From Deltaproteobacteria bacterium (GTDB lineage Bacteria > UBA10199 > GCA-002796325 > 1-14-0-20-49-13), in assembly GCA_016180865.1 (NCBI GenBank), contig JACPAJ010000065.1:1-45390 (forward strand): DNA of 45,390 nt, given 5' to 3'. Positions 4,125 to 32,637 of the stretch are shown in pieces; position 1 is the first letter of the stretch; each line of letters starts with the position of its first letter. The notes under the pieces were generated by a model. That model was given only the letters and a program-made list of their open reading frames with translations, searched no databases and was not told the DNA's origin. Both the position numbers and the translations under genes were made by a program.

Positions 4125-5705
4125 ATGAAACTAATAATATATTTTGTGATTTTGGCAGTAGCGTTTTCATCGTGCGGCGGAGGGGGCGGCGATTCGGTTA
4201 ATGAAGAAGATTCCGGTGAAACCGAAAATAATGCAGCCGTTATTGAAAACGCCGATTCAGCGGAACTTTTGATAACGCAGGAAGAAGAGCCGGTAACTAA
4301 TACAGCATCCGATGGAAATCCTTCAACAAACGAAGCAAAACCTGCAGAAACCGCAACAATAACATTAGATGCAGATAAAGACGGAGTGCCGGACGATGCC
4401 GATAATTGCCCATTGGCGGCAAATCTCGATCAAAAAAATTCTGATTTTGAATATTATGAAAAGGGAATAAAGACCCCTGAAGGAAAAAACGTTGAGCCCG
4501 ATTCAAACGGCGATGCCTGTGACGGCGACTTGGACGGTGACGGTGCAAATGTAACATATGTCGGAACTTTCGGTTCAGATGTGAATCCGGGGACGTTTTA
4601 TGAGCCGGCGCTTACGCTGCAAAAAGGGATGAAAATCGCCCTTAAAAATGGAAACGACGTTTATGTTTCGGCCGGCACATATAATGCCGACGGAATAATA
4701 TTCGCATCCGGCATTGATATTTACGGCGGCTTTGCGGATGGCTACGGCGATCGCAAAACCCATTCGGAAAGCAAGCTGTTTAAAACGGCGCTTGTTAACA
4801 GCCTTAGCCCGATAACAATAAATGTCCAAGCTTCAACCGGAACTGTCAAGCTGGACGGATTTTATATTTATAATAATGCTGCAGATGAGGGCGCAGGCGG
4901 AGAGCTGCCCGATACCGATGATTATGGATGCAATCAGGCAACGGTATATTCCAATGGCGGAAATATAATGCTTTCGAATAATGAAATCAGCGGAAGCCCT
5001 CTTAGCATGAGGCCTTGCGGCGTATTAATCGGAGGCGGAACGATTGCTGATTTATCGTCAAATTTTATCGATGCTTCCGGGGATGAAGACGCGGTTGCGG
5101 GCACGGCCGCGGCAATAGTTGAATCTGACGCCGTTCTTTCAAATAATATTCTTGTAGCAGGCTCCGGTAAACACAGCAGGGCCTTAAGGTTGATGGATTC
5201 CGATGCCTTGATATTAAATAATACGATTGACGGGTCTTCGGATTCGGTAAATCCAAAGACCGCTTATGGCATAGAATTTTCGGGAGGCTCGTTTACATTA
5301 ATCAATAATATTGTATATACGGCAGATGCCGACGATCAGACCGCATTGATCTGCATCGGAGATTCGCCGTCGAATTCAAAAATCGAAAATAATATCCTGA
5401 CGACCTTTCCAAACACGGGCATGAATGCTGTGCTGGCGGATTGCGACGGAAATTTTATATGGACATCCGATTTTATTGAATCGAAGGAACTTTATCTTGA
5501 AGGAGCTATCGTAAAGAATAACAGTTCGTTCTCCGGCTTAAGTATTGCCGGTCTGCTGAACGAAGATTATAGTCCGCTGGCGGAAGAGGCCGTTGACACA
5601 GGCAAAAATCTTAATGATTCCATATATGGAAATATCGCAGCGGATTTTTATGGAAATCCAAGGCCGTCGGGCAGCGGATTTGATATGGGAGCAATCGAAA
5701 AATGA
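4125..5705 (+). CDS. Lipoprotein with thrombospondin type-3 Ca-binding repeats and a right-handed parallel beta-helix domain
   Basis: 526-aa ORF with lipobox AFSSCGGGGG. The TSP3-like repeats are DADKDGVPDDADNCP and DSNGDACDGDLDGDG. The periodic beta-helix repeats are NNEISGS, NNILVAGS, LNNTIDGS, INNIVY and ENNILT. The C-terminal end is FDMGAIE. Confidence 0.8.
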   Translation: MKLIIYFVILAVAFSSCGGGGGDSVNEEDSGETENNAAVIENADSAELLITQEEEPVTNTASDGNPSTNEAKPAETATITLDADKDGVPDDADNCPLAANLDQKNSDFEYYEKGIKTPEGKNVEPDSNGDACDGDLDGDGANVTYVGTFGSDVNPGTFYEPALTLQKGMKIALKNGNDVYVSAGTYNADGIIFASGIDIYGGFADGYGDRKTHSESKLFKTALVNSLSPITINVQASTGTVKLDGFYIYNNAADEGAGGELPDTDDYGCNQATVYSNGGNIMLSNNEISGSPLSMRPCGVLIGGGTIADLSSNFIDASGDEDAVAGTAAAIVESDAVLSNNILVAGSGKHSRALRLMDSDALILNNTIDGSSDSVNPKTAYGIEFSGGSFTLINNIVYTADADDQTALICIGDSPSNSKIENNILTTFPNTGMNAVLADCDGNFIWTSDFIESKELYLEGAIVKNNSSFSGLSIAGLLNEDYSPLAEEAVDTGKNLNDSIYGNIAADFYGNPRPSGSGFDMGAIEK

Positions 5706-6145
5706 GGATTCAATTTTTAATTCTTGCCTTAGCCTTCTTATGCAATGCATGCGCCGGACATGCATCTACAAGAGCCCCCTCTCGGGTGTCCCCAAATCCC
5801 TCCTTAGAGAGGGGGCTTCTGCCTCGCGTCTTTTTTCCGTTCGATTCGGATTTTCTGACGCCGGAATCTTCCAAAAGCATAAAGTATAACATCGATTGGA
5901 TGAATGAAAATTCAGCCGCGTACATAATTCTTGAAGGTCACTGCGATGAAGTCGGTCAAAGCGAATATAATATGGAGCTTGGCGATAAAAGGGCAAGGGC
6001 TGTCGAATCTTATATGATAGAGCATGGCATTCCCGAAGAACGAATTATTATGATTGTAAGCTATGGCTCCGAAAGGCCGTTGAATTTGGGCCATGAAATA
6101 AAGGATCTTCGCGAAAACAGAAGAGTTGAATTTATCGTGAGATAA
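5702..6145 (+). CDS. OmpA-family peptidoglycan-associated lipoprotein (Pal-like)
   Basis: 147-aa ORF with the OmpA_C motifs FPFDSDFL, LEGHCDEVGQSEYNMELGDKRA and NRRVEFIV. It has an N-terminal Cys-containing signal (FLCNAC) and an ATGA overlap with the upstream gene. Confidence 0.8.
   Translation: MRIQFLILALAFLCNACAGHASTRAPSRVSPNPSLERGLLPRVFFPFDSDFLTPESSKSIKYNIDWMNENSAAYIILEGHCDEVGQSEYNMELGDKRARAVESYMIEHGIPEERIIMIVSYGSERPLNLGHEIKDLRENRRVEFIVR
5774..5816. repeat. GC-rich hairpin element lying in-frame in the Pal-like linker
   Basis: GCCCCCTCTC (5774-5783) pairs with GAGAGGGGGC (5807-5816) around a 23-nt loop. It is translated as RAPSRVSPNPSLERGLL. Confidence 0.6.
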
Positions 6146-19709: not shown

Positions 19710-19805
19710 GTCATCCCCGTCCGCCACGGCGGAGGGATCCAGTGAATATCATGAGATCCCCCCGCCACTACTACACGGCGGGCATGGTGCTTTTGCAGGG
19801 ATGAC
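19710..19805. repeat. ~96-bp composite GC-rich hairpin element in the murI-ctp intergenic region
   Basis: The terminal inverted repeats are GTCATCCC (19710-19717) and GGGATGAC (19798-19805). The inner hairpins are TCCGCC-AC-GGCGGA (19720-19733), GGGATC...GATCCC (19735-19760) and CCCGCC-ACTACTACAC-GGCGGG (19761-19782). Confidence 0.65.
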
Positions 19806-20886
19806 ACACCGAAAAAGACTTTTTTTTAGAGGTTTTTGTCTGTTTTTGATGGCATTCGGGGTTTCTTCTAATTCGTTTGCTGTTTCCGAAGAGGGCTATA
19901 AAGAACTTCATATTTTTTCAAAAGTTTTGAGCAAAGAAGAAAAAAATTACGTCGAAGAAATCGATGATTCCAGTTTAATTAGAAACGCCAAGACAGGCGA
20001 TAAAATCATAAAAATAGACGGCGTTTCCACAAGAGATCTGAATCTTGCGGAATCGGTTTTAAAAATGCGCGGAAAAGTCGGAAGCAAAATTGTTCTGACA
20101 ATAGTCCGGGGCGACCCCAAAAAACCATTTGACGTCTCGGTTGAACGACAGTTGATAAAGGTTCCAAGCGTTCGTTCCGAAATTCTTGATAAGGAATACG
20201 GCTACGTAAAAATAAGGAGCTTTCAGGAGAGAACGTCCAAAGATTTAAGAAAAGAGATTGATAAGTTCAAAAAGGCCAATGCTTTAAAAGGGCTGCTTTT
20301 GGATTTAAGGGACAATCCCGGCGGATTGCTGGAACAGGCCGTGGAAGTGTCGGATCTATTTTTAGCGAAAGGCGTGATTGTATCGACGGAAAGCCGCGGC
20401 AAAGAGATAGACAAGAGAGAAGCTAAAGACGACGGCATTGAAGGAGAATATCCGATGGTTGTTCTTGTGAACGGCGGAACTGCTTCGGCTTCCGAAATTG
20501 TCGCCGGAGCTTTGCAGGATCATGCGCGAGCAATGGTTCTTGGCACGCAGAGTTTCGGCAAGGGGAGCGTGCAGACCGTCGTTGAAATGGACGACGGCAG
20601 CGCTTTGAAACTTACGATTGCTCTCTATTTTACTCCTAAGGGCCGGTCGATTCAGGCGTATGGAATTGTGCCGGATATTATTGTTGAAGATCAGGAAGTG
20701 GCCGCGAAAAACGGAAAGAAAGAGCTGAGGGAACAGGATTTGCCAGGCCATTTGGAAGTCCCTAGCGAAAGAGTTGAAACAGCCGAACCTGAAAAACTGG
20801 TAGCCTCGTTTGGCAAAATTGATTATCAAAAGAAGGCCGCATTGGATTACCTAAAGAGCTGGGAAATATTCAGAAAAGGGCAGTAA
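19801..20886 (+). CDS. ctpA: S41-family carboxy-terminal processing peptidase
   Basis: Motifs LDLRDNPGG, NGGTASASEIVAGALQD and SFGKGSVQ. The start is placed at ATG 19801 (MTHRKRLFF..., a signal peptide). The track ORF start at 19663 reads through the repeat element. Confidence 0.8.
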   Translation: MTHRKRLFFRGFCLFLMAFGVSSNSFAVSEEGYKELHIFSKVLSKEEKNYVEEIDDSSLIRNAKTGDKIIKIDGVSTRDLNLAESVLKMRGKVGSKIVLTIVRGDPKKPFDVSVERQLIKVPSVRSEILDKEYGYVKIRSFQERTSKDLRKEIDKFKKANALKGLLLDLRDNPGGLLEQAVEVSDLFLAKGVIVSTESRGKEIDKREAKDDGIEGEYPMVVLVNGGTASASEIVAGALQDHARAMVLGTQSFGKGSVQTVVEMDDGSALKLTIALYFTPKGRSIQAYGIVPDIIVEDQEVAAKNGKKELREQDLPGHLEVPSERVETAEPEKLVASFGKIDYQKKAALDYLKSWEIFRKGQ

Positions 20887-25121: not shown

Positions 25122-25847
25122 ATGAAGAGACATTTAAAGTTGTTGCACATATTGGGGTTGTTGGCGGCATTTCTTCCATTTTTACTCCAATGCGGAAGTG
25201 CAAGCGATGGAACGTCACAGAGTACGGCGAAGACGGCATTAACGGGTGAAATCTCGAACCTCGATACAGAGGCGAAGTTGTTCGAACTCGGCGGGCAGGA
25301 GGTGGATTTTTCGGCTGCCGGCTTTGAAGGGGGAACGGAAGATGATCTTGCAGATGGAGAGGATGTCGAAGTAGAGGGTTCATTGGCAGAAGGCGAAGTT
25401 ATTGAAGCGGAAGCGGTCAAATTTGAAGATAATAACGACGTTGAAGCGGGGAAGATTAAAATAAAGGCGGATGTGGATGCAGTTGATTCCGAAATGGGAA
25501 CAATCACACTGCGTGGATTGCAGCCTCTAATCTTCAAGGCAGATGCAGCTACAAAATTAGTAAGCTTTAACAGCCTTGCCGAACTTGCATCCGGCGACCA
25601 TATAAAGATTAAAGCTATAATGGACGGTTTCAGCGGACAGCTGACGGCCACCGAAATTAAAGGCGTGTCCATTGATTTTGCTCAAATAGAAAGTTTCTTT
25701 CTGGAGAGAGGCATTGCCGTGGATGTTGCTGCTGTGCTGGGCGGAGCTTCTGCCGGCGACGAGATTTCAATAAAGGGCAGCATAAACCTTTCAACTGGTG
25801 CCGTCACATTGGAAGAGATCAAAGTGAAAAATGAGGGAATACTATAG
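25122..25847 (+). CDS. Acidic lipoprotein, unknown function (repeated small beta-domain pattern)
   Basis: 241-aa ORF with lipobox LLQCGS and repeated D/E-rich G..V.V.G segments. The antisense ORF at 25082-25672 is judged spurious. Confidence 0.65.
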   Translation: MKRHLKLLHILGLLAAFLPFLLQCGSASDGTSQSTAKTALTGEISNLDTEAKLFELGGQEVDFSAAGFEGGTEDDLADGEDVEVEGSLAEGEVIEAEAVKFEDNNDVEAGKIKIKADVDAVDSEMGTITLRGLQPLIFKADAATKLVSFNSLAELASGDHIKIKAIMDGFSGQLTATEIKGVSIDFAQIESFFLERGIAVDVAAVLGGASAGDEISIKGSINLSTGAVTLEEIKVKNEGIL

Positions 25848-25931: not shown

Positions 25932-25954
25932 CCCGCCGACGGGTTAGTGGCGGG
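25932..25954. repeat. CCGCCACTAA-family hairpin (reverse orientation)
   Basis: CCCGCC-GACGGGTTAGT-GGCGGG. Its reverse complement begins CCCGCCACTAA, as do the copies at 28742 and 27213. Confidence 0.55.
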
Positions 25955-26109
25955 AACGGATATTAACGGCTGTTATTGACAAAAGGGGGCCCAAAAGGGG
26001 CCTAGAGATATGCGGCGACAGCTATGTATATTCCTTGGTTTGTTTTATTTGAGAAATAGCTATTAAAAGTGCTTGACAAGTATGACCTGTTGTACTAGTC
26101 CATAGATAC

Positions 26110-26924: not shown

Positions 26925-27119
26925 GCAGAAAAGGTCGATGACTTTGTAAGAAACGGCGATGGCCAAATTGTTGTGAGTCCTATTACTCTAAGCGACCTTA
27001 ATAAGAAATTTGATGTGCTGATGTCTCCGTAAATCGGGAAGTAATTTCTTGGGCCCTTTTTGGGCCAAAAAAACACACACTTTGCCAAACATCCAAAACC
27101 CGCAAATACGCGTCAATTG

Positions 27120-27191: not shown

Positions 27192-27235
27192 AATTCGCCA
27201 AAGGCGAATTGGCCGCCAACGTTTTAGTGGCGGAC
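27192..27235 (-). repeat. Twin-hairpin module abutting the tRNA 5' end
   Basis: On the tRNA strand it reads GTCCGCCACTAAAACGTTGGCGGCC followed by AATTCGCC-TTT-GGCGAATT, which ends immediately before tRNA position +1. The first hairpin is 22/25 identical to rnpB 28741-28765. Confidence 0.7.
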
Positions 27236-27315
27236 TCGCCCTCCATATAGCCAAAATTAAAAATAAAAGCAAGTTGACAATTTTATCCGCATTGCATATA
27301 TCCCCCCTTAACTTA

Positions 27316-27988
27316 ATGGCACCGGATTTGAAAACTCAATTAGCGCTTTATCCCTGTTAAAGTTGCAGAGGCAAGAGCCGATTATGACGCGCTATTAAAT
27401 GCAATACATCGAAAAGAGGCCGAAAAAGCCGATTTTGAGAAGAAGCGCAAAAGCGACGAAAAAGATGTCGAGGTCGAAAATCTAAGGATTAAAGAGCGGG
27501 AGGCCAAGCTCTATGCTATTAAAACTAATAAGGAATATCAGGCTGCTATCAAAGAAATAGCCGATGCGAAGCAGGCAAATCGCGAAAAAGAAGAGAGCGT
27601 TATCGTTCTAATGGAAAAAATTAATGCTTTGGCTGAAGAAATCACGCAACTTTCTTCCGGACTTGCCGATAAAGAGAAAGTGTTTAATGAAAAAGAAGCG
27701 GAGCTCCGGAAAAACGAAGGAGAGCTGAAAACTGATAGGGACAAGTATCATGCAGAGCATCAGGATGCCGGAACAAAGGTTGATCCGGCGGTTTTAAAGC
27801 AGTATCGCTATATTCAGAATAAATACAGCGATGCGATGGCGCTAGCTGTAAACGGCATATGCAGCGGATGCAATAAGAGGATTCCTCCGCAGTTATATAT
27901 TGAACTGCAGAAATGGAATGAGCTTATAAGCTGCACTAATTGCCACAGGCTGCTGTTTTATCAGGAGCCGGCGGAAGAGGTAAAATGA
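27316..27988 (+). pseudogene. COG1579/DUF164-type coiled-coil protein with a C4 zinc ribbon; 5' region frame-disrupted
   Basis: The C-terminus carries KTNKEYQAAIKEI and the zinc ribbon CSGCNKRIP...CTNCHRLL. The frame is open from 27344, but the first in-frame start is ATG 27611. A 14-codon ORF (MAPDLKTQLALYPC) starts at 27316 in another frame and stops at 27358-27360. Confidence 0.6.
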
Positions 27989-28296
27989 ATTTAAAAAATA
28001 TGCCAAAAGATATCGCGGCGGAAATCCTCGGTTATCTCGCCGAAAACGAAGAGTTTGAATCGATCGAAAAACTCGCCGGAGGCGATGTTTCGATCGCCGA
28101 GGTGAGGGCTCTTCTGCGCGAAATTTCAGGCTTACTGGCCGCTGAAGCTGCAAGCGAAAACAAAAACGCGTTTAATGCAAAGAACAGCCGCGATTTATCC
28201 AAAATATCAAAAGATATTATTTCCAGTCTTTCACCGAGGGAAGAACGGCAGTTGCTTTCAACGTTCGGCCTTATTGATAAACAGACTAAAAAATAG
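27985..28296 (+). CDS. Small protein with a sigma-70 region-4-like C-terminal motif
   Basis: About 103 aa from ATG 27985, which makes an ATGA overlap with the upstream stop. The C-terminal LSPREERQLLSTFGL resembles the region 4.2 signature. Confidence 0.55.
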   Translation: MNLKNMPKDIAAEILGYLAENEEFESIEKLAGGDVSIAEVRALLREISGLLAAEAASENKNAFNAKNSRDLSKISKDIISSLSPREERQLLSTFGLIDKQTKK

Positions 28297-28298
28297 CC

Positions 28299-28712
28299 GT
28301 GAAGAGATTAATAATTAATACCGATGGCGCCGCGCGCGGAAATCCCGGCCCTGCAAGCTTGGGCGTCGTGATTAAAAACGCGGACGGGCATGTTGTCAAG
28401 GAACTCTCCGCATATTTGGGAGAGATGACAAATAATCAGGCTGAATATAAGGCGCTTATTGCAGCGCTTGAAACCGCGGCGGAAATTGGAGCAGAATCCA
28501 TTGCCATATTTGCGGATTCGGAGCTGATGGTTAAACAGGTTAAAGGGTTATATAAAGTTAAAAATGAGGGGCTGAAACCCTTATTTGACGAGGTAAAGGG
28601 GCTCTTGCGTAAATTTAAAAATTGTAATATAGAATATGTGCCCCGCGAAAAGAATAAAGAGGCGGATAAGCTGGCAAATTTGGCGATTGATAAACATTTT
28701 AAGGTTCTTTGA
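28299..28712 (+). CDS. rnhA: Ribonuclease HI-type protein
   Basis: 137-aa ORF with a GTG start. Motifs are TDGAARGNPGPAS, NNQAEYKALIAAL, DSELMVKQ and REKNKEADKLAN (the DEDD-type RNase H fold). Confidence 0.8.
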   Translation: MKRLIINTDGAARGNPGPASLGVVIKNADGHVVKELSAYLGEMTNNQAEYKALIAALETAAEIGAESIAIFADSELMVKQVKGLYKVKNEGLKPLFDEVKGLLRKFKNCNIEYVPREKNKEADKLANLAIDKHFKVL

Positions 28713-28716
28713 AATT

Positions 28717-29112
28717 CAGGGTCTGGTGGTCGCCGAAATTGCCCGCCACTAAAACTTTGGCGGGCGAAAATTTTGCCATAGGCAAAATTTTCGGAGGAAA
28801 GTCCGGACTTCGCAGAGCATCATGCCAGCTAACGGCTGGGCGCATTTTGGAAAGATGCGACGGAAAGTGCAACAGAAAGTATGTACAGGTAATGCTGTAG
28901 TGAAATCAGGCAAACCCCATGAGAAGCAAGGGCAAATAATCGAGCACTTTCTTGAGATTACTCAAGAAGGAAGACTTGCTCGGTCGAAGTCTCGGTTCGT
29001 TTTACTAGCTAGGACGAGCTGAAAGTGCTCGAGGGTAGCCCGCTGGAGCGCCGCAGCGATGCGTCGCCAAGATGAATGATCACCTTACACAAGATCCGGC
29101 TTATAGACCCTG
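28717..29112 (+). ncRNA. rnpB: RNase P RNA, bacterial type A
   Basis: Universally conserved blocks are present: GGAGGAAAGTCCGGAC (5' strand of P4), GTGCAACAGAAAGT, AGCAAGGGCAAATA, GGGTAGCCCGCTGGAGC, AGATGAATGA and ACAAGATCCGGCTTATAG (3' strand of P4). P1 pairs CAGGGTCT (28717-28724) with AGACCCTG (29105-29112). Confidence 0.92.
28741..28791 (+). repeat. Twin-hairpin module embedded in the P3 region of rnpB
   Basis: GCCCGCC-ACTAAAACTTT-GGCGGGC followed by AAAATTTTGCC-ATA-GGCAAAATTTT. It has the same design as 27192-27235. Confidence 0.7.
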
Positions 29113-29121
29113 TTTTCCATG

Positions 29122-29153
29122 ACCCCGCATCAGCAATGGTGCGGGGTTTTTTT
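29122..29153 (+). terminator. Rho-independent terminator of rnpB
   Basis: ACCCCGCA-N10-TGCGGGGT followed by a T7 run. Confidence 0.8.
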
Positions 29154-31165: not shown

Positions 31166-32563
31166 ATGGGCGCAAATTTTCCAAAAATATGCTTTGGCAA
31201 GAAGCATCCTTCGTGTTTCCCGCTTCAAAAGATCGAAACTGCGTCTAATGACAGCCGTGATGTAATGCAAAAGGCGGAAGAGCTGCCCGGCACAAGAATT
31301 ATTACCTGCAACAAGGGCAAAATGTGCAGTCTTTTTAATGTCGGGATCGCTGATATCCAGCTTAATGCGGTATCGTGGAGTTTCTGCAGTGCGGACGTTA
31401 TGCCCAATGGCCTCTTAGATTATTTTTACAGTGATAAATTTCCGTATAATGCATGGTCAAACACGAATTGCAAGATGGAGATTTTTACGGGTCATTCATA
31501 TGCGATGGCTTATATGATTTTGCCAGATCAGATATCTTTTGAGGTGTTTTCAAAATGGTTGTACTATATCGGCGACAAAACGGGCATTTTGACAGAAAGA
31601 GAACGCGCAATTCATGAAATTGCCGATGTCATTTCCGGCTTAGTCAAGTCCAAAAAAACAACTGAAGGCATCCCTCCGCCAAAGGAAGCCATCGATCTAA
31701 ATTATTTTGATCCATACGAATTATGGATTAGAGAAGGGCTGGATTTATATACAACTCCGTCGCAGGAGCTGCTTGCTACAAGCGATGAAGAATTGACAGT
31801 CAAATTTTATAACTGGGCGCAGGAACAGGGTGAATATCCCCTAGATAAGTGCCTTAAAGAAACGAAGTTTGCATTTTCTCTTCAAGATTCTAAGCAAGGT
31901 CGGTATCTTAATGGGGCTTATTATTCCCGATTTCTTGATGTCGTTGTTTTAAGACCGCCAAGCATCGAACAGTTGTTAAAAGATGATAAGAGCTTTGATG
32001 ATGTAGTGATACATGAATGTCTTCATTGGGAATGGAATAATTACAATGTTAGAGATGAACTTCTGTCTCTGTTGTATGAAGGGATGTTGCTTTTTTTTGA
32101 AAAAGAACATGTCAGCAGAAAAGAGAGACAGAGGCTGGATAAACTATTATATCCCATATTCGAAGGATCCTCAGGTAACGAAATCAGAGCTTATGTGCTT
32201 GGTAATGTTAGAGCCGCCACCATAATTTTAAATGAAGTAATGCCCTTTTTGCCAGACTCCGCGGTTGTTTATTCATTTAATTGGCTGGACGAGATTTTAG
32301 AAGCGGATCAACAAGAAATAAAAAGGGTGGATGTTGGAAACCGCAGAGAGTTTCTAAAAACTTATAAGGATGCTTATCTCTTATATATGAGAAAATTGCC
32401 AGCTGCGTATGCTAAATTATCAGACTTGGCCTCGAATCTGTCATTGCGCAGAGTCCGCCGAGCCTTAGTGGCGGAAGCCCCGAAGGGGCGCGGCAATCTC
32501 CTGCAAACACTTGATTTATTGAGATTGCTTCGTCATCCGCCCGAGGCGGACTCCTCGCAATGA
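31166..32563 (+). CDS. Hypothetical protein with an HExxH (SprT/WLM-like) zinc-metallopeptidase motif
   Basis: 465-aa ORF with no signal peptide. NGAYYSRFLDVVVLRPP...SFDDVVIHECLHWEW resembles the minimal SprT-like metalloprotease core. The last ~40 codons are supplied by a repeat element. Confidence 0.6.
   Translation: MGANFPKICFGKKHPSCFPLQKIETASNDSRDVMQKAEELPGTRIITCNKGKMCSLFNVGIADIQLNAVSWSFCSADVMPNGLLDYFYSDKFPYNAWSNTNCKMEIFTGHSYAMAYMILPDQISFEVFSKWLYYIGDKTGILTERERAIHEIADVISGLVKSKKTTEGIPPPKEAIDLNYFDPYELWIREGLDLYTTPSQELLATSDEELTVKFYNWAQEQGEYPLDKCLKETKFAFSLQDSKQGRYLNGAYYSRFLDVVVLRPPSIEQLLKDDKSFDDVVIHECLHWEWNNYNVRDELLSLLYEGMLLFFEKEHVSRKERQRLDKLLYPIFEGSSGNEIRAYVLGNVRAATIILNEVMPFLPDSAVVYSFNWLDEILEADQQEIKRVDVGNRREFLKTYKDAYLLYMRKLPAAYAKLSDLASNLSLRRVRRALVAEAPKGRGNLLQTLDLLRLLRHPPEADSSQ
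32442..32562. repeat. ~121-bp composite palindromic element
   Basis: The outer inverted repeat pairs CATTGCGCAGAGTCCGCC with GGCGGACTCCTCGCAATG. The inner hairpins are TCCGCC-N10-GGCGGA (32454-32475), GCCCC-GAA-GGGGC and GCAATCTC-N20-GAGATTGC. Confidence 0.7.
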
Positions 32564-32637
32564 CACATTGGTGGGCTTTTAGAGGCGCCCTTAATAAAAC
32601 TAGCTGACTTTTAAAACTTCCGTGCTATATTAATAAG

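Follow-up and report, generated by a model that had tools for sequence, protein, structure and literature searches.

The stretch of DNA analyzed here, called the window throughout, comprises 45,390 nucleotides (nt) of a Deltaproteobacteria bacterium (assembly GCA_016180865.1, contig JACPAJ010000065.1) and contains two closely similar copies of a short hairpin, HP1, one within the P3 helix of the RNase P RNA gene rnpB and the other in the 5' leader of a tRNA-Met gene (Table 1). We propose, with a probability of roughly 0.62, that HP1 is a copy of a tiny mobile palindrome resembling repetitive extragenic palindromic (REP) sequences and bacterial interspersed mosaic elements (BIMEs), which is probably mobilized by a REP-associated tyrosine transposase (RAYT) and lands in hairpin-forming DNA. 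This proposal is based on the observation of a unit that is orientation-independent, mostly intergenic and doublet-forming, with a covarying stem and no conserved flanks, and on its absence from orthologous sites, its precise insertion without duplication and its adjacency to RAYT genes. Loci and genome stretches other than the window are designated by L numbers.

The two copies in the window differ by 3 mismatches and are identical at 22/25 positions, their 11-nt loops agree at 10/11 positions, and a match to the 25-mer at no more than 3 mismatches is found in 0/100 dinucleotide-preserving shuffles of the sequence. Each copy is followed by a second hairpin, with an ATA loop in rnpB and a TTT loop at the tRNA, and the leader pair fills positions -44 to -1 such that it abuts tRNA position +1 (27191) and the partner ends at the RNase P cleavage site. 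The leader partner is a short-loop unit of the same super-family as HP1; comparable TTCGCC-NNN-GGCGAA units adjoin tRNA sequences in L119 and L152 and lie ~250 nt downstream of a tRNA in L154. Over the parts that they cover, independently assembled sequences of the same species, namely L180 (GCA_016193505.1) and the Logan contigs L082 and L181, agree exactly with the rnpB and leader hairpins of the window, the leader HP1 copy being identical in L180. The rnpB copy of L081, a 99.1%-identical strain, differs by one C-to-A change in its loop.

The host of the first copy is a full-length class A RNase P RNA gene (187.2 bits against a gathering score of 100 in Rfam cmscan) that has both GAGGAAAGUCCGG and ACAAGAUCCGGCUUA, the test for conserved P4 and J3/4, and HP1 lies at +28 of this RNA. 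Alignment by cmscan resolves a 38-nt insertion in P3 relative to the class A model, and the minimum free energy fold of the 62-nt P3 region is a three-way junction (-30.5 kcal/mol, z = -5.1; RNAfold). The distal hairpin, HP2, which in a narrower reading is AAAATTTTGCC-ATA-GGCAAAATTTT at 28767-28791 (+), is most likely the native P3 stem-loop and not a repeat unit, because the closest relatives carry simple P3 hairpins at this place and because the HP2 palindrome has no occurrence outside this species in 1.37 Mb of fetched DNA. If HP2 is native, HP1 probably entered P3 after the third base pair, probably together with an AAATTG 5' flank, and the inserted stretch would probably be AAATTG, the unit and one G; the GAAATTG 5' flank and half of the unit at this site are identical to one copy in L152. 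Alternatively, P3 itself may be HP1, the situation seen in L150 and L164, with the AU-rich palindrome as the later arrival. An earlier sequence-only reading of this DNA had aligned the two copies by hand at 22/25 identities, seen a second hairpin of similar design after each, located the leader module at -44 to -1 with its end where RNase P cuts, and described P3 as a branched element of about 60 nt; recomputation, coordinates, fold and the cmscan run with the Rfam class A model, which it had named as the means of defining P3, bear out each of these points. Its view that the two hairpin pairs are one module holds at the tRNA, which has the recurrent doublet of a forward copy and, 0-1 nt downstream, its partner, but not at rnpB, where the partner is unique to the species and most likely native P3.

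A fundamental question is whether these sites carry the hairpin in close relatives. The comparison covers 80 related metagenome loci (660 kb) fetched by the protein RNase H, the gene of which lies directly upstream of rnpB, an order kept in 13/80 of the loci including the five closest. Hairpins of the form CCGCC-ACTA...-GGCGG number 0 in these 660 kb and five in the 45-kb window (at 19762, 25933, 27213, 28743 and 32455), with ~0.003 expected in the latter. L003, L004 and L005 (RNase H identity 66-75%) have plain P3 hairpins, for example CCCUUAU-AUA-AUAAGGG, with loops of 3 nt in L003 and L004 and an AU-rich P3 in L004; L001 and L002 (76%) have a different, 70-nt branched P3 insertion (~2565-2640), in which a long stem GGAGUAGC/GCUACUCC surrounds three mini-hairpins. 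P3 is a hot spot of hairpin turnover in this clade. Between the RNase H gene and rnpB, L003 also shows a GTCATTCCCGCC...GGAGATGAC hairpin of simple form. At the tRNA locus, the tRNA-Met of L004 and of L011 lies upstream of the Zn-ribbon gene, on the strand opposite to that of the window and with an unstructured leader, and tRNA-Met is inverted in the window relative to L004, L011 and L009. The gene order of L091 and L116 is that of the window, being tRNA-Met, tRNA-Val, doublet and Zn-ribbon gene. Synteny and common hairpins suggest that the bacterium of the window is Omnitrophota-like; the fetched stretches of MAG JACRLT01 have nothing but the hairpins in common with the window.

HP1 belongs to a family of such units. 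Family counts are derived from exact-pattern matches in fixed 8-kb stretches of Genome Taxonomy Database (GTDB) species-representative genomes, the pattern being the 21-mer CCGCCACTAAAACNNNGGCGG with 18 specified bases and the phylum being taken from the label in the record title. The pattern matches 97 stretches, compared with ~17 expected by chance from the collection size, and these are labeled Omnitrophota (29, including the complete genome of Ca. Velamenicoccus archaeovorus), Elusimicrobiota (13), Planctomycetota (11) and unclassified metagenome-assembled genomes (MAGs; 19), with the same 21-mer found in many unrelated contexts. Alignment of the 97 copies yields a unit of ~23 nt with the consensus Y-CCGCC-ACTAAAAC-N-T-Y-GGCGG-R and a stem of 6-8 bp, in which the closing pair covaries (T-A in 48 copies and C-G in 34, i.e. 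82/97) and outside of which the flanks are uninformative (~0 bits beyond -1/+21); ~15/97 of the matches look like chance, with an unpaired closing position and an atypical NNN. By a crude open reading frame (ORF) call, 79/103 copies are intergenic. Their orientation is ~50:50 with respect to neighboring genes and ~11 forward to 9 reverse with respect to host RNAs. A partner hairpin resembling the unit's reverse complement lies 0-1 nt downstream of 13-17/103 copies; these inverted doublets usually have the partner directly 3' of a forward copy, which is the layout of the tRNA-Met leader. Both L152 and the window have piles of units like those of BIMEs and REPINs, the hairpin-forming REP doublets.

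The unit shows strong enrichment at genes for structured RNAs. An intact tRNA is no more than 100 nt away from 14/103 copies, compared with 2.0% of random positions in the same stretches (P = 1.7e-8) or a genome-wide estimate of ~0.5% (P = 6e-16), and at least 12 copies are embedded in or adjoin a tRNA fragment that has an intact tRNA of like kind beside it. Copies inside tRNA 5' or 3' fragments beside an intact tRNA are found in L087, L107, L116, L121, L154, L158, L163, L175 and L126, with the break points given in Table 1. In L087 and L154, with the intact tRNA as reference, insertion is precise and leaves no target-site duplication. In L152, five or six units are piled in one pseudo-tRNA D-loop, two of them within the loop of another, and in L126 (~1530-1760) a tRNA-Leu is split in the T-loop by a 166-nt segment that has inverted hairpins at its ends and an intact tRNA-Leu inside. 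Of the copies associated with tRNAs, most do not border on the site at which RNase P cleaves. RNase P RNA genes carry the unit in four other genomes, or five with the window, at P3, P12, P13 and P19. The unit is the entire P3 in L164 (208.6 bits); in L150, the closest named relative (RNase H identity 66%), a one-mismatch variant is the entire P3 and an exact copy occupies the P13 loop (234 bits); L111 has a reverse copy at the P19 site (201.7 bits); and L115 has a doublet before P12, in an rnpB that was recognized by eye below the Rfam threshold. Furthermore, an exact unit forms the apical part of P3 in a cyclic diguanylate (c-di-GMP-I) riboswitch in L161, and a variant does likewise in L155. 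The sequence-only reading had offered chance landing in two RNA genes as one explanation, and the tRNA enrichment, the rnpB copies in four other genomes and the riboswitch tips argue against it. It had also proposed counting the copies that abut tRNA genes, which in representative genomes gives the 14/103 within 100 nt, mostly away from the cleavage site, and it would have abandoned functional significance if close relatives lacked the insertion and copies were random relative to RNA genes, of which the first is found and the second is not.

Several observations on individual loci stand beside these counts. ARAGORN calls a false tRNA-Val at L091 2897-2969 that consists of the partner hairpin as 5' half and the intact 3' part of a disrupted tRNA-Val copy. 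T-loop breaks also occur at L089 ~5020-5430, L175 ~4730-4900 and L146 ~5890-5945, in split tRNA genes or tRNA fragments, and in L089 and L175 an insert of ~110-130 nt precedes a second copy of the tRNA 3' end; in these phyla, tRNA T-loops seem to be targets of small elements. The rnpB of L115 (5400-5932; Planctomycetia), missed at the Rfam gathering threshold, is loaded with palindromic insertions, namely a branched P3, the doublet that precedes P12 and, around P15-P18, several CCCACCACTTGTTT...AAACAAGTGGTGGG elements.

Which protein could move such a unit? In an all-against-all BLAST of the proteins neighboring copies, the main recurrent family is the Zn-ribbon/RNase H locus upstream of rnpB, and a three-member cluster is Y1_Tnp, matching the NCBIfam model NF047646 ('REP-associated tyrosine transposase', cut-off 80 bits; Table 1). 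Y1-type elements, such as IS200/IS605 and REP, insert without target-site duplication. Aptamers of the c-di-GMP-I class lie directly upstream of RAYT genes in two Omnitrophota MAGs (L183 3796-3874, 56.9 bits; L155 1384-1470, 49.9 bits), which suggests second-messenger control of RAYT.

We hypothesize that the unit is copied as DNA, most likely by a RAYT of the Y1/HUH type that recognizes the folded single-stranded hairpin, and that it lands preferentially in exposed loops of other hairpin-forming DNA. Such a loop preference would cause copies to build up within and next to genes for structured RNAs, as well as within each other, and selection would then remove harmful insertions. In the rnpB of the window, one copy would have entered the 5' strand of a long native P3 hairpin and produced the three-way junction, an insertion that would be tolerated because P3 is peripheral, and the tRNA-Met leader would have received a forward copy with its short-loop partner. 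On this reading the unit most likely spreads as selfish DNA, the rnpB and leader copies go back to two separate insertions within one sub-family rather than to an enzyme and a substrate designed as a pair, and functional coupling is not needed; mobilization by RAYT and loop-directed targeting of the unit would be steps of this model, and the copies would be neutral for RNase P RNA and for pre-tRNA-Met processing. The sequence-only reading had suggested a REP/MITE-like element, which stands in kind for the REP part, given a multi-copy, mostly intergenic, orientation-independent palindrome with a RAYT in two or three genomes. A MITE, or miniature inverted-repeat transposable element, is 50-500 bp long, with terminal inverted repeats and target-site duplication, and the unit was rejected as a MITE on its ~23 nt, its unconserved flanks and the lack of duplication at L087 and L154; only the L126 segment of 166 nt with inverted hairpin ends resembles a MITE-like element.

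Several observations weigh against mobilization as a REP-like element. Counting exact 21-mer matches, which leaves diverged copies aside, gives 3 for the complete Velamenicoccus genome of 1.97 Mb and 6-9 for two MAGs, and the 97-copy alignment has no GTAG or CGTC tag at the foot of the unit. The loop ACTAAAAC is near-invariant across phyla, whereas REPs are normally species-specific, and this may reflect a conserved host function. The rnpB copy of the window is in the P3 stem and not in an apical loop, and the unit as the whole of P3 in L150 and L164 could be an ancestral or functional P3 variant. There is no RAYT gene in the window, the immediate flanks of the L161 gene are a different palindrome, and RAYT homologues from other assemblies (e.g. 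L183 and L186) are flanked by unrelated palindromes or none; the RAYT link to this unit therefore rests on two good cases, although the unrelated flanking palindromes fit lineage-specific REP-RAYT pairs.

An alternative hypothesis, which we regard as improbable but the strongest of the rivals, is that the hairpin is a functional RNA module recruited repeatedly, serving as a handle for an RNA-binding or processing protein, as a stabilizing 5' hairpin or, as a doublet, as an RNase III-type site; a structure shared by enzyme and substrate would be one case of it. Some weight remains with it, since the loop stays the same from phylum to phylum, with covariation in the closing pair, and since the hosts are consistently transcribed structured RNAs, namely rnpB in five genomes, riboswitch P3 tips and tRNA leaders, trailers and spacers; moreover, L150 and L164 have the unit as their whole P3, and a forward loop is complementary to a reverse one, such that kissing between RNAs of opposite orientation is conceivable. 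However, orientation relative to the host RNA is ~50:50 and the loop sequence in the RNA is therefore not constant, being ACUAAAAC in some hosts and GUUUUAGU in others, and the two window copies, both forward, are therefore unable to pair. Truncated and evidently dead tRNA fragments, or intergenic DNA in either orientation, hold many of the copies, the unit is absent from orthologous sites of close relatives, a loop base differs between 99%-identical strains (L081), and the position within rnpB varies by genome among P3, P12, P13 and P19. The recognition structure linking RNase P and a substrate leader that the sequence-only reading had envisaged receives no positive support, with copies in both orientations, most tRNA copies off the cleavage site and many in dead fragments. 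It is similarly improbable that the hairpin is a sequence-invariant handle, as RNA or single-stranded DNA, common to RNase P RNA, pre-tRNA flanks and c-di-GMP riboswitches and read by some factor, which would give enzyme, substrates and regulators of the stable-RNA economy one tag in common and make the hairpin more than selfish DNA, or, in a variant of this idea, the first bacterial repeat with insertion directed by nucleic-acid structure, in the form of apical loops, rather than by sequence.

A further hypothesis, less probable again, treats the 6-8-bp inverted arms around an asymmetric 9-bp spacer as the core site of a site-specific recombinase that moves or exchanges small tRNA-gene cassettes, with the copies in rnpB and at other places as footprints. 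The 166-nt cassette of L126, with its intact tRNA-Leu between inverted hairpins, speaks for this, as do hairpins at the junction of a tRNA fragment and an intact tRNA in L146, L175, L116, L121 and L107, the inversion of the window tRNA-Met relative to L004, L011 and L009, and the loss of synteny in L081 15 nt from HP1. However, no integrase or recombinase recurs beside copies, site-specific recombination would not leave solo 23-nt units at rnpB and riboswitch helix tips, or nested piles, as its footprints, doublets 0-1 nt apart are hard to reconcile with it, the association with a Y1 transposase suits the REP model better, and the L081 junction may be an assembly artefact of a 2-kb contig. Chance or convergence on P3 helices that are naturally CCGCC/GGCGG-like, as in the GC-rich P3 stems of relatives, often CCGCC...GGCGG (L043, L111), and as the ~15/97 random-looking matches might suggest, is effectively refuted for the two hairpins by the shuffles and 10/11 loop identity, by 97 matches against ~17 expected with concentration in three phyla and many unrelated contexts, and by the 97-copy alignment.

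Other candidate identities were considered and rejected. HP1 is not an intrinsic terminator: an intrinsic-terminator scan calls neither window copy, no T run follows either and a U tract is lacking, and the rnpB copy is internal to an RNA that reads through to 29121-29148. An Rfam scan of the whole window at E <= 1 returns nothing at 27192-27235 and nothing specific to the P3 insert, such that no known RNA family matches the hairpin or doublet by covariance model. A decayed tRNA 5' fragment upstream of the window HP1, as at the L091 and L116 doublets, was rejected with 252/2000 shuffles scoring as well. For recombination between the two inverted window copies there is no evidence, their spacers differ, and it would split rnpB. 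An origin in phages or plasmids was dismissed, with no meaningful unit matches in phage or plasmid records and none in IMG/VR. Finally, a CRISPR repeat was considered, the Cas13a-type repeat being one that we take to end in ACUAAAAC, and rejected: the window has no array, tandem cases (periods of 80 nt in L110, 116 nt in L087 and 142 nt in L169) repeat the whole unit including the 'spacer', and there are no cas genes among the few annotated proteins neighboring copies. A literature search on sequence strings of the unit gave nothing relevant, and keyword searches gave analogues only.

Table 1 Coordinates of features in the window, tRNA break points and candidate transposase genes
Feature	Location	Strand	Support or remark
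tRNA-Met (anticodon CAT)	27119/27120-27191	-	ARAGORN; Rfam tRNA 71.2 bits
Partner hairpin AATTCGCC-TTT-GGCGAATT	27192-27210	-	tRNA positions -19 to -1
HP1 copy in tRNA-Met 5' leader, GTCCGCCACTAAAACGTTGGCGGCC	27211-27235	-	tRNA positions -44 to -20; forward relative to tRNA
rnpB, bacterial class A RNase P RNA	28714-29119	+	Rfam RF00010, model 1-367
Expanded P3, 62 nt	28733-28794	+	Closing stem CCGAA/UUCGG, side branch HP1, distal hairpin
HP1 copy in rnpB, GCCCGCCACTAAAACTTTGGCGGGC	28741-28765	+	Repeat-family unit, forward
Distal P3 hairpin (HP2), GAAAATTTTGCC-ATA-GGCAAAATTTTC	28766-28792	+	
Canonical terminator just 3' of rnpB	29121-29148	+	Terminator scan
Diverged family copy CCCGCCACTACTACACGGCGGG	19761-19782	+	Nested in composite palindrome 19710-19805 (GTCATCCC...GGGATGAC)
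Diverged family copy CCCGCCACTAACCCGTCGGCGGG	25932-25954	-	Intergenic
Diverged family copy TCCGCCACTAAGGCTCGGCGGA	32454-32475	-	Nested in composite palindrome 32440-32564 (GTCATTGCG...CGCAATGAC)
tRNA-copy break in D-loop	L087, L154, L152, L130		
tRNA-copy break between positions 26 and 27	L116 and L091 (both tRNA-Val); L121 (tRNA-Ala); L107 and L158 (both tRNA-Pro)		
tRNA-copy break in T-loop	L126		
RAYT gene, Omnitrophota JACRLT01	L155		81.9 bits; three family hairpins 200-300 nt upstream
RAYT gene, Terriglobia	L169		104.1 bits; four tandem repeats with exact unit, 72 nt downstream; diverged copies upstream
RAYT gene, Omnitrophota VGKM01	L161		63.5 bits, below cut-off; hairpin 281 nt away

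Additional features of the window and of other stretches were noted. The tRNA-Met has a G1-C72 pair and by that criterion is not an initiator, and a weak promoter-like site read from the sequence, TTGCTT-17-TATATG, may be where transcription of the leader hairpins starts. Hairpins of the form GGCCC-N5-GGGCC occur at ~27052-27066 (+), by the tRNA-Met 3' end, and at 25988-26002 (-), in the intergenic region with the 25933 copy; only the latter has a weak T-rich tail. The composites at 19710-19805 and 32440-32564 have outer arms GTCAT...ATGAC, each enclosing several small CCGCC/GGCGG-type hairpins, and the second overlaps the 3' end of ORF 31166-32563 and may therefore alter the C-terminus of that protein. 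The Zn-ribbon/CT398-like gene (~27317-27988) lacks 58 nt after codon 11 (27349) compared with the intact 239-amino-acid gene in L180 and L081, a loss that shifts the frame so that only a 125-amino-acid ATG-initiated ORF is left; this lesion is either a strain-level pseudogene or an assembly error. In the DUF5666 gene (25122-25847), 87 nt (29 codons, in frame) of L180 are missing from the window at 25660. In L081, a contig of 2.2 kb from the strain with 99% identity, a DUF4325 gene end (1-231) replaces the tRNA-Met and hairpins to the left of window position 27250, such that synteny breaks 15 nt from HP1; the window arrangement is backed by L180, and the L081 junction is either a strain rearrangement or a chimeric contig. 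A match to the Rickettsia small RNA family sRNA47 at 20458-20576 (-), in the S41 peptidase gene, scores 49.1 bits (E = 1.3e-9), short of the Rfam threshold of 60, and is probably coding-sequence similarity and not a small RNA. Beyond the window, a composite element of ~150-250 nt that holds the hairpin at a fixed position and reads ...GAGGTCGGGAGACCTCTCCCAC..GACGCAGCCAAT[hairpin]ACTATCGCG...TGAAATCAA recurs in L083, L093, L104, L122, L136, L141, L148, L166 and L178; it matches nothing in Rfam, and MAG CAZAMK01 has at least 5 copies of it. A second composite, in which the hairpin is followed by ATTTAATTCGGCC and then another hairpin, is found at L110 340-560 and in L159, L170 and L177; it is tandem with an 80-nt period in Ca. 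Velamenicoccus archaeovorus and present in Planctomycetia MAGs.

If the proposal is correct, Omnitrophota, Elusimicrobiota and Planctomycetota, which have been little studied, share a minimal 23-nt palindromic repeat that favors helix tips of structured-RNA genes, namely those of RNase P RNA, riboswitches and tRNA loci, and the odd P3, P12, P13 and P19 'expansions' in these lineages would be explained, which bears on covariance models and comparative structure. The copies would constitute a natural experiment on the tolerance of RNase P RNA, riboswitches and pre-tRNA leaders for stable hairpins, including one that ends at the cleavage site, and would provide a testable pairing of a REP-like unit with candidate RAYT genes outside Proteobacteria, where such systems have mostly been studied. 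For annotation pipelines, tRNA pseudo-fragments and false tRNA calls are likely around units, as in the L091 case.

The closest bacterial comparison is with REP, BIME and REPIN elements and their RAYT transposases (PMC2817692, PMC3116915, PMC3733652). Like these, which are imperfect palindromes of 20-40 nt, the unit is a short palindrome with a GC stem, mostly extragenic, in both orientations, forming inverted doublets and inserted without target-site duplication, and NF047646 genes adjoin its copies in L155 and L169. In L169, repeats lie on both sides of the gene. REPs usually exceed 100 copies per genome (PMC2817692), and the classical super-families have a GTAG or CGTC tetranucleotide at the foot of the palindrome (PMC3733652). 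In contrast, the unit described here has no such tag, has an apparently low exact copy number and has a core common to several phyla. Since the foot tag is absent and the copy counts cover exact matches, we call the unit REP-like and do not assign it to a described REP family. The unit markedly favors tRNA genes, RNase P RNA and the helix tips of riboswitches, which to our knowledge has not been described for REPs. Insertion sequences of the IS1397 type target the loops of REP hairpins, which as a use of palindromic-unit loops likewise gives nesting, but IS1397 is a full insertion sequence with a DDE transposase and not a 23-nt unit. Insertions are also tolerated in stable RNAs of bacteria, as with the short tandemly repeated repetitive (STRR) sequences in cyanobacterial P12, Rickettsia palindromic elements and intervening sequences in helix tips of 23S rRNA. 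The unit resembles these in occupying peripheral helices or loops of an essential RNA with core elements kept, and differs in sequence and lineage; we know of no report of such an insertion as one invariant 23-nt unit spanning rnpB, riboswitches, tRNA loci and phyla.

Outside bacteria, mitochondrial GC clusters insert into variable regions of genes for structural RNAs and into one another. GC-rich palindromes reportedly flank tRNA genes in fungal mitochondrial DNA (Yin et al. in 1981), and Weiller et al. in 1989 reportedly, by title, treat single elements and tandem arrays; both studies are listed, together with Paquin et al. in 2000, in PMC4478555, which for fungal mitochondria describes GC clusters that are mobile, double-hairpin elements and tRNA-flanking palindromes rich in GC. 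Repetitive hairpin-forming elements are described for sponge mitochondria (PMC2800124). These mitochondrial elements are, like the unit, tiny GC-rich hairpins that are often paired, spread within a genome and flank tRNA genes, but they are organellar, unrelated in sequence and without a known transposase, whereas the unit occurs in free-living bacteria and has a Y1 candidate mobilizer. The GC clusters, double-hairpin elements and tRNA-flanking palindromes of fungal mitochondria are the closest functional analogues of the unit, and the unit, if the proposal is correct, would be the bacterial counterpart of mitochondrial mobile GC clusters and double-hairpin elements.

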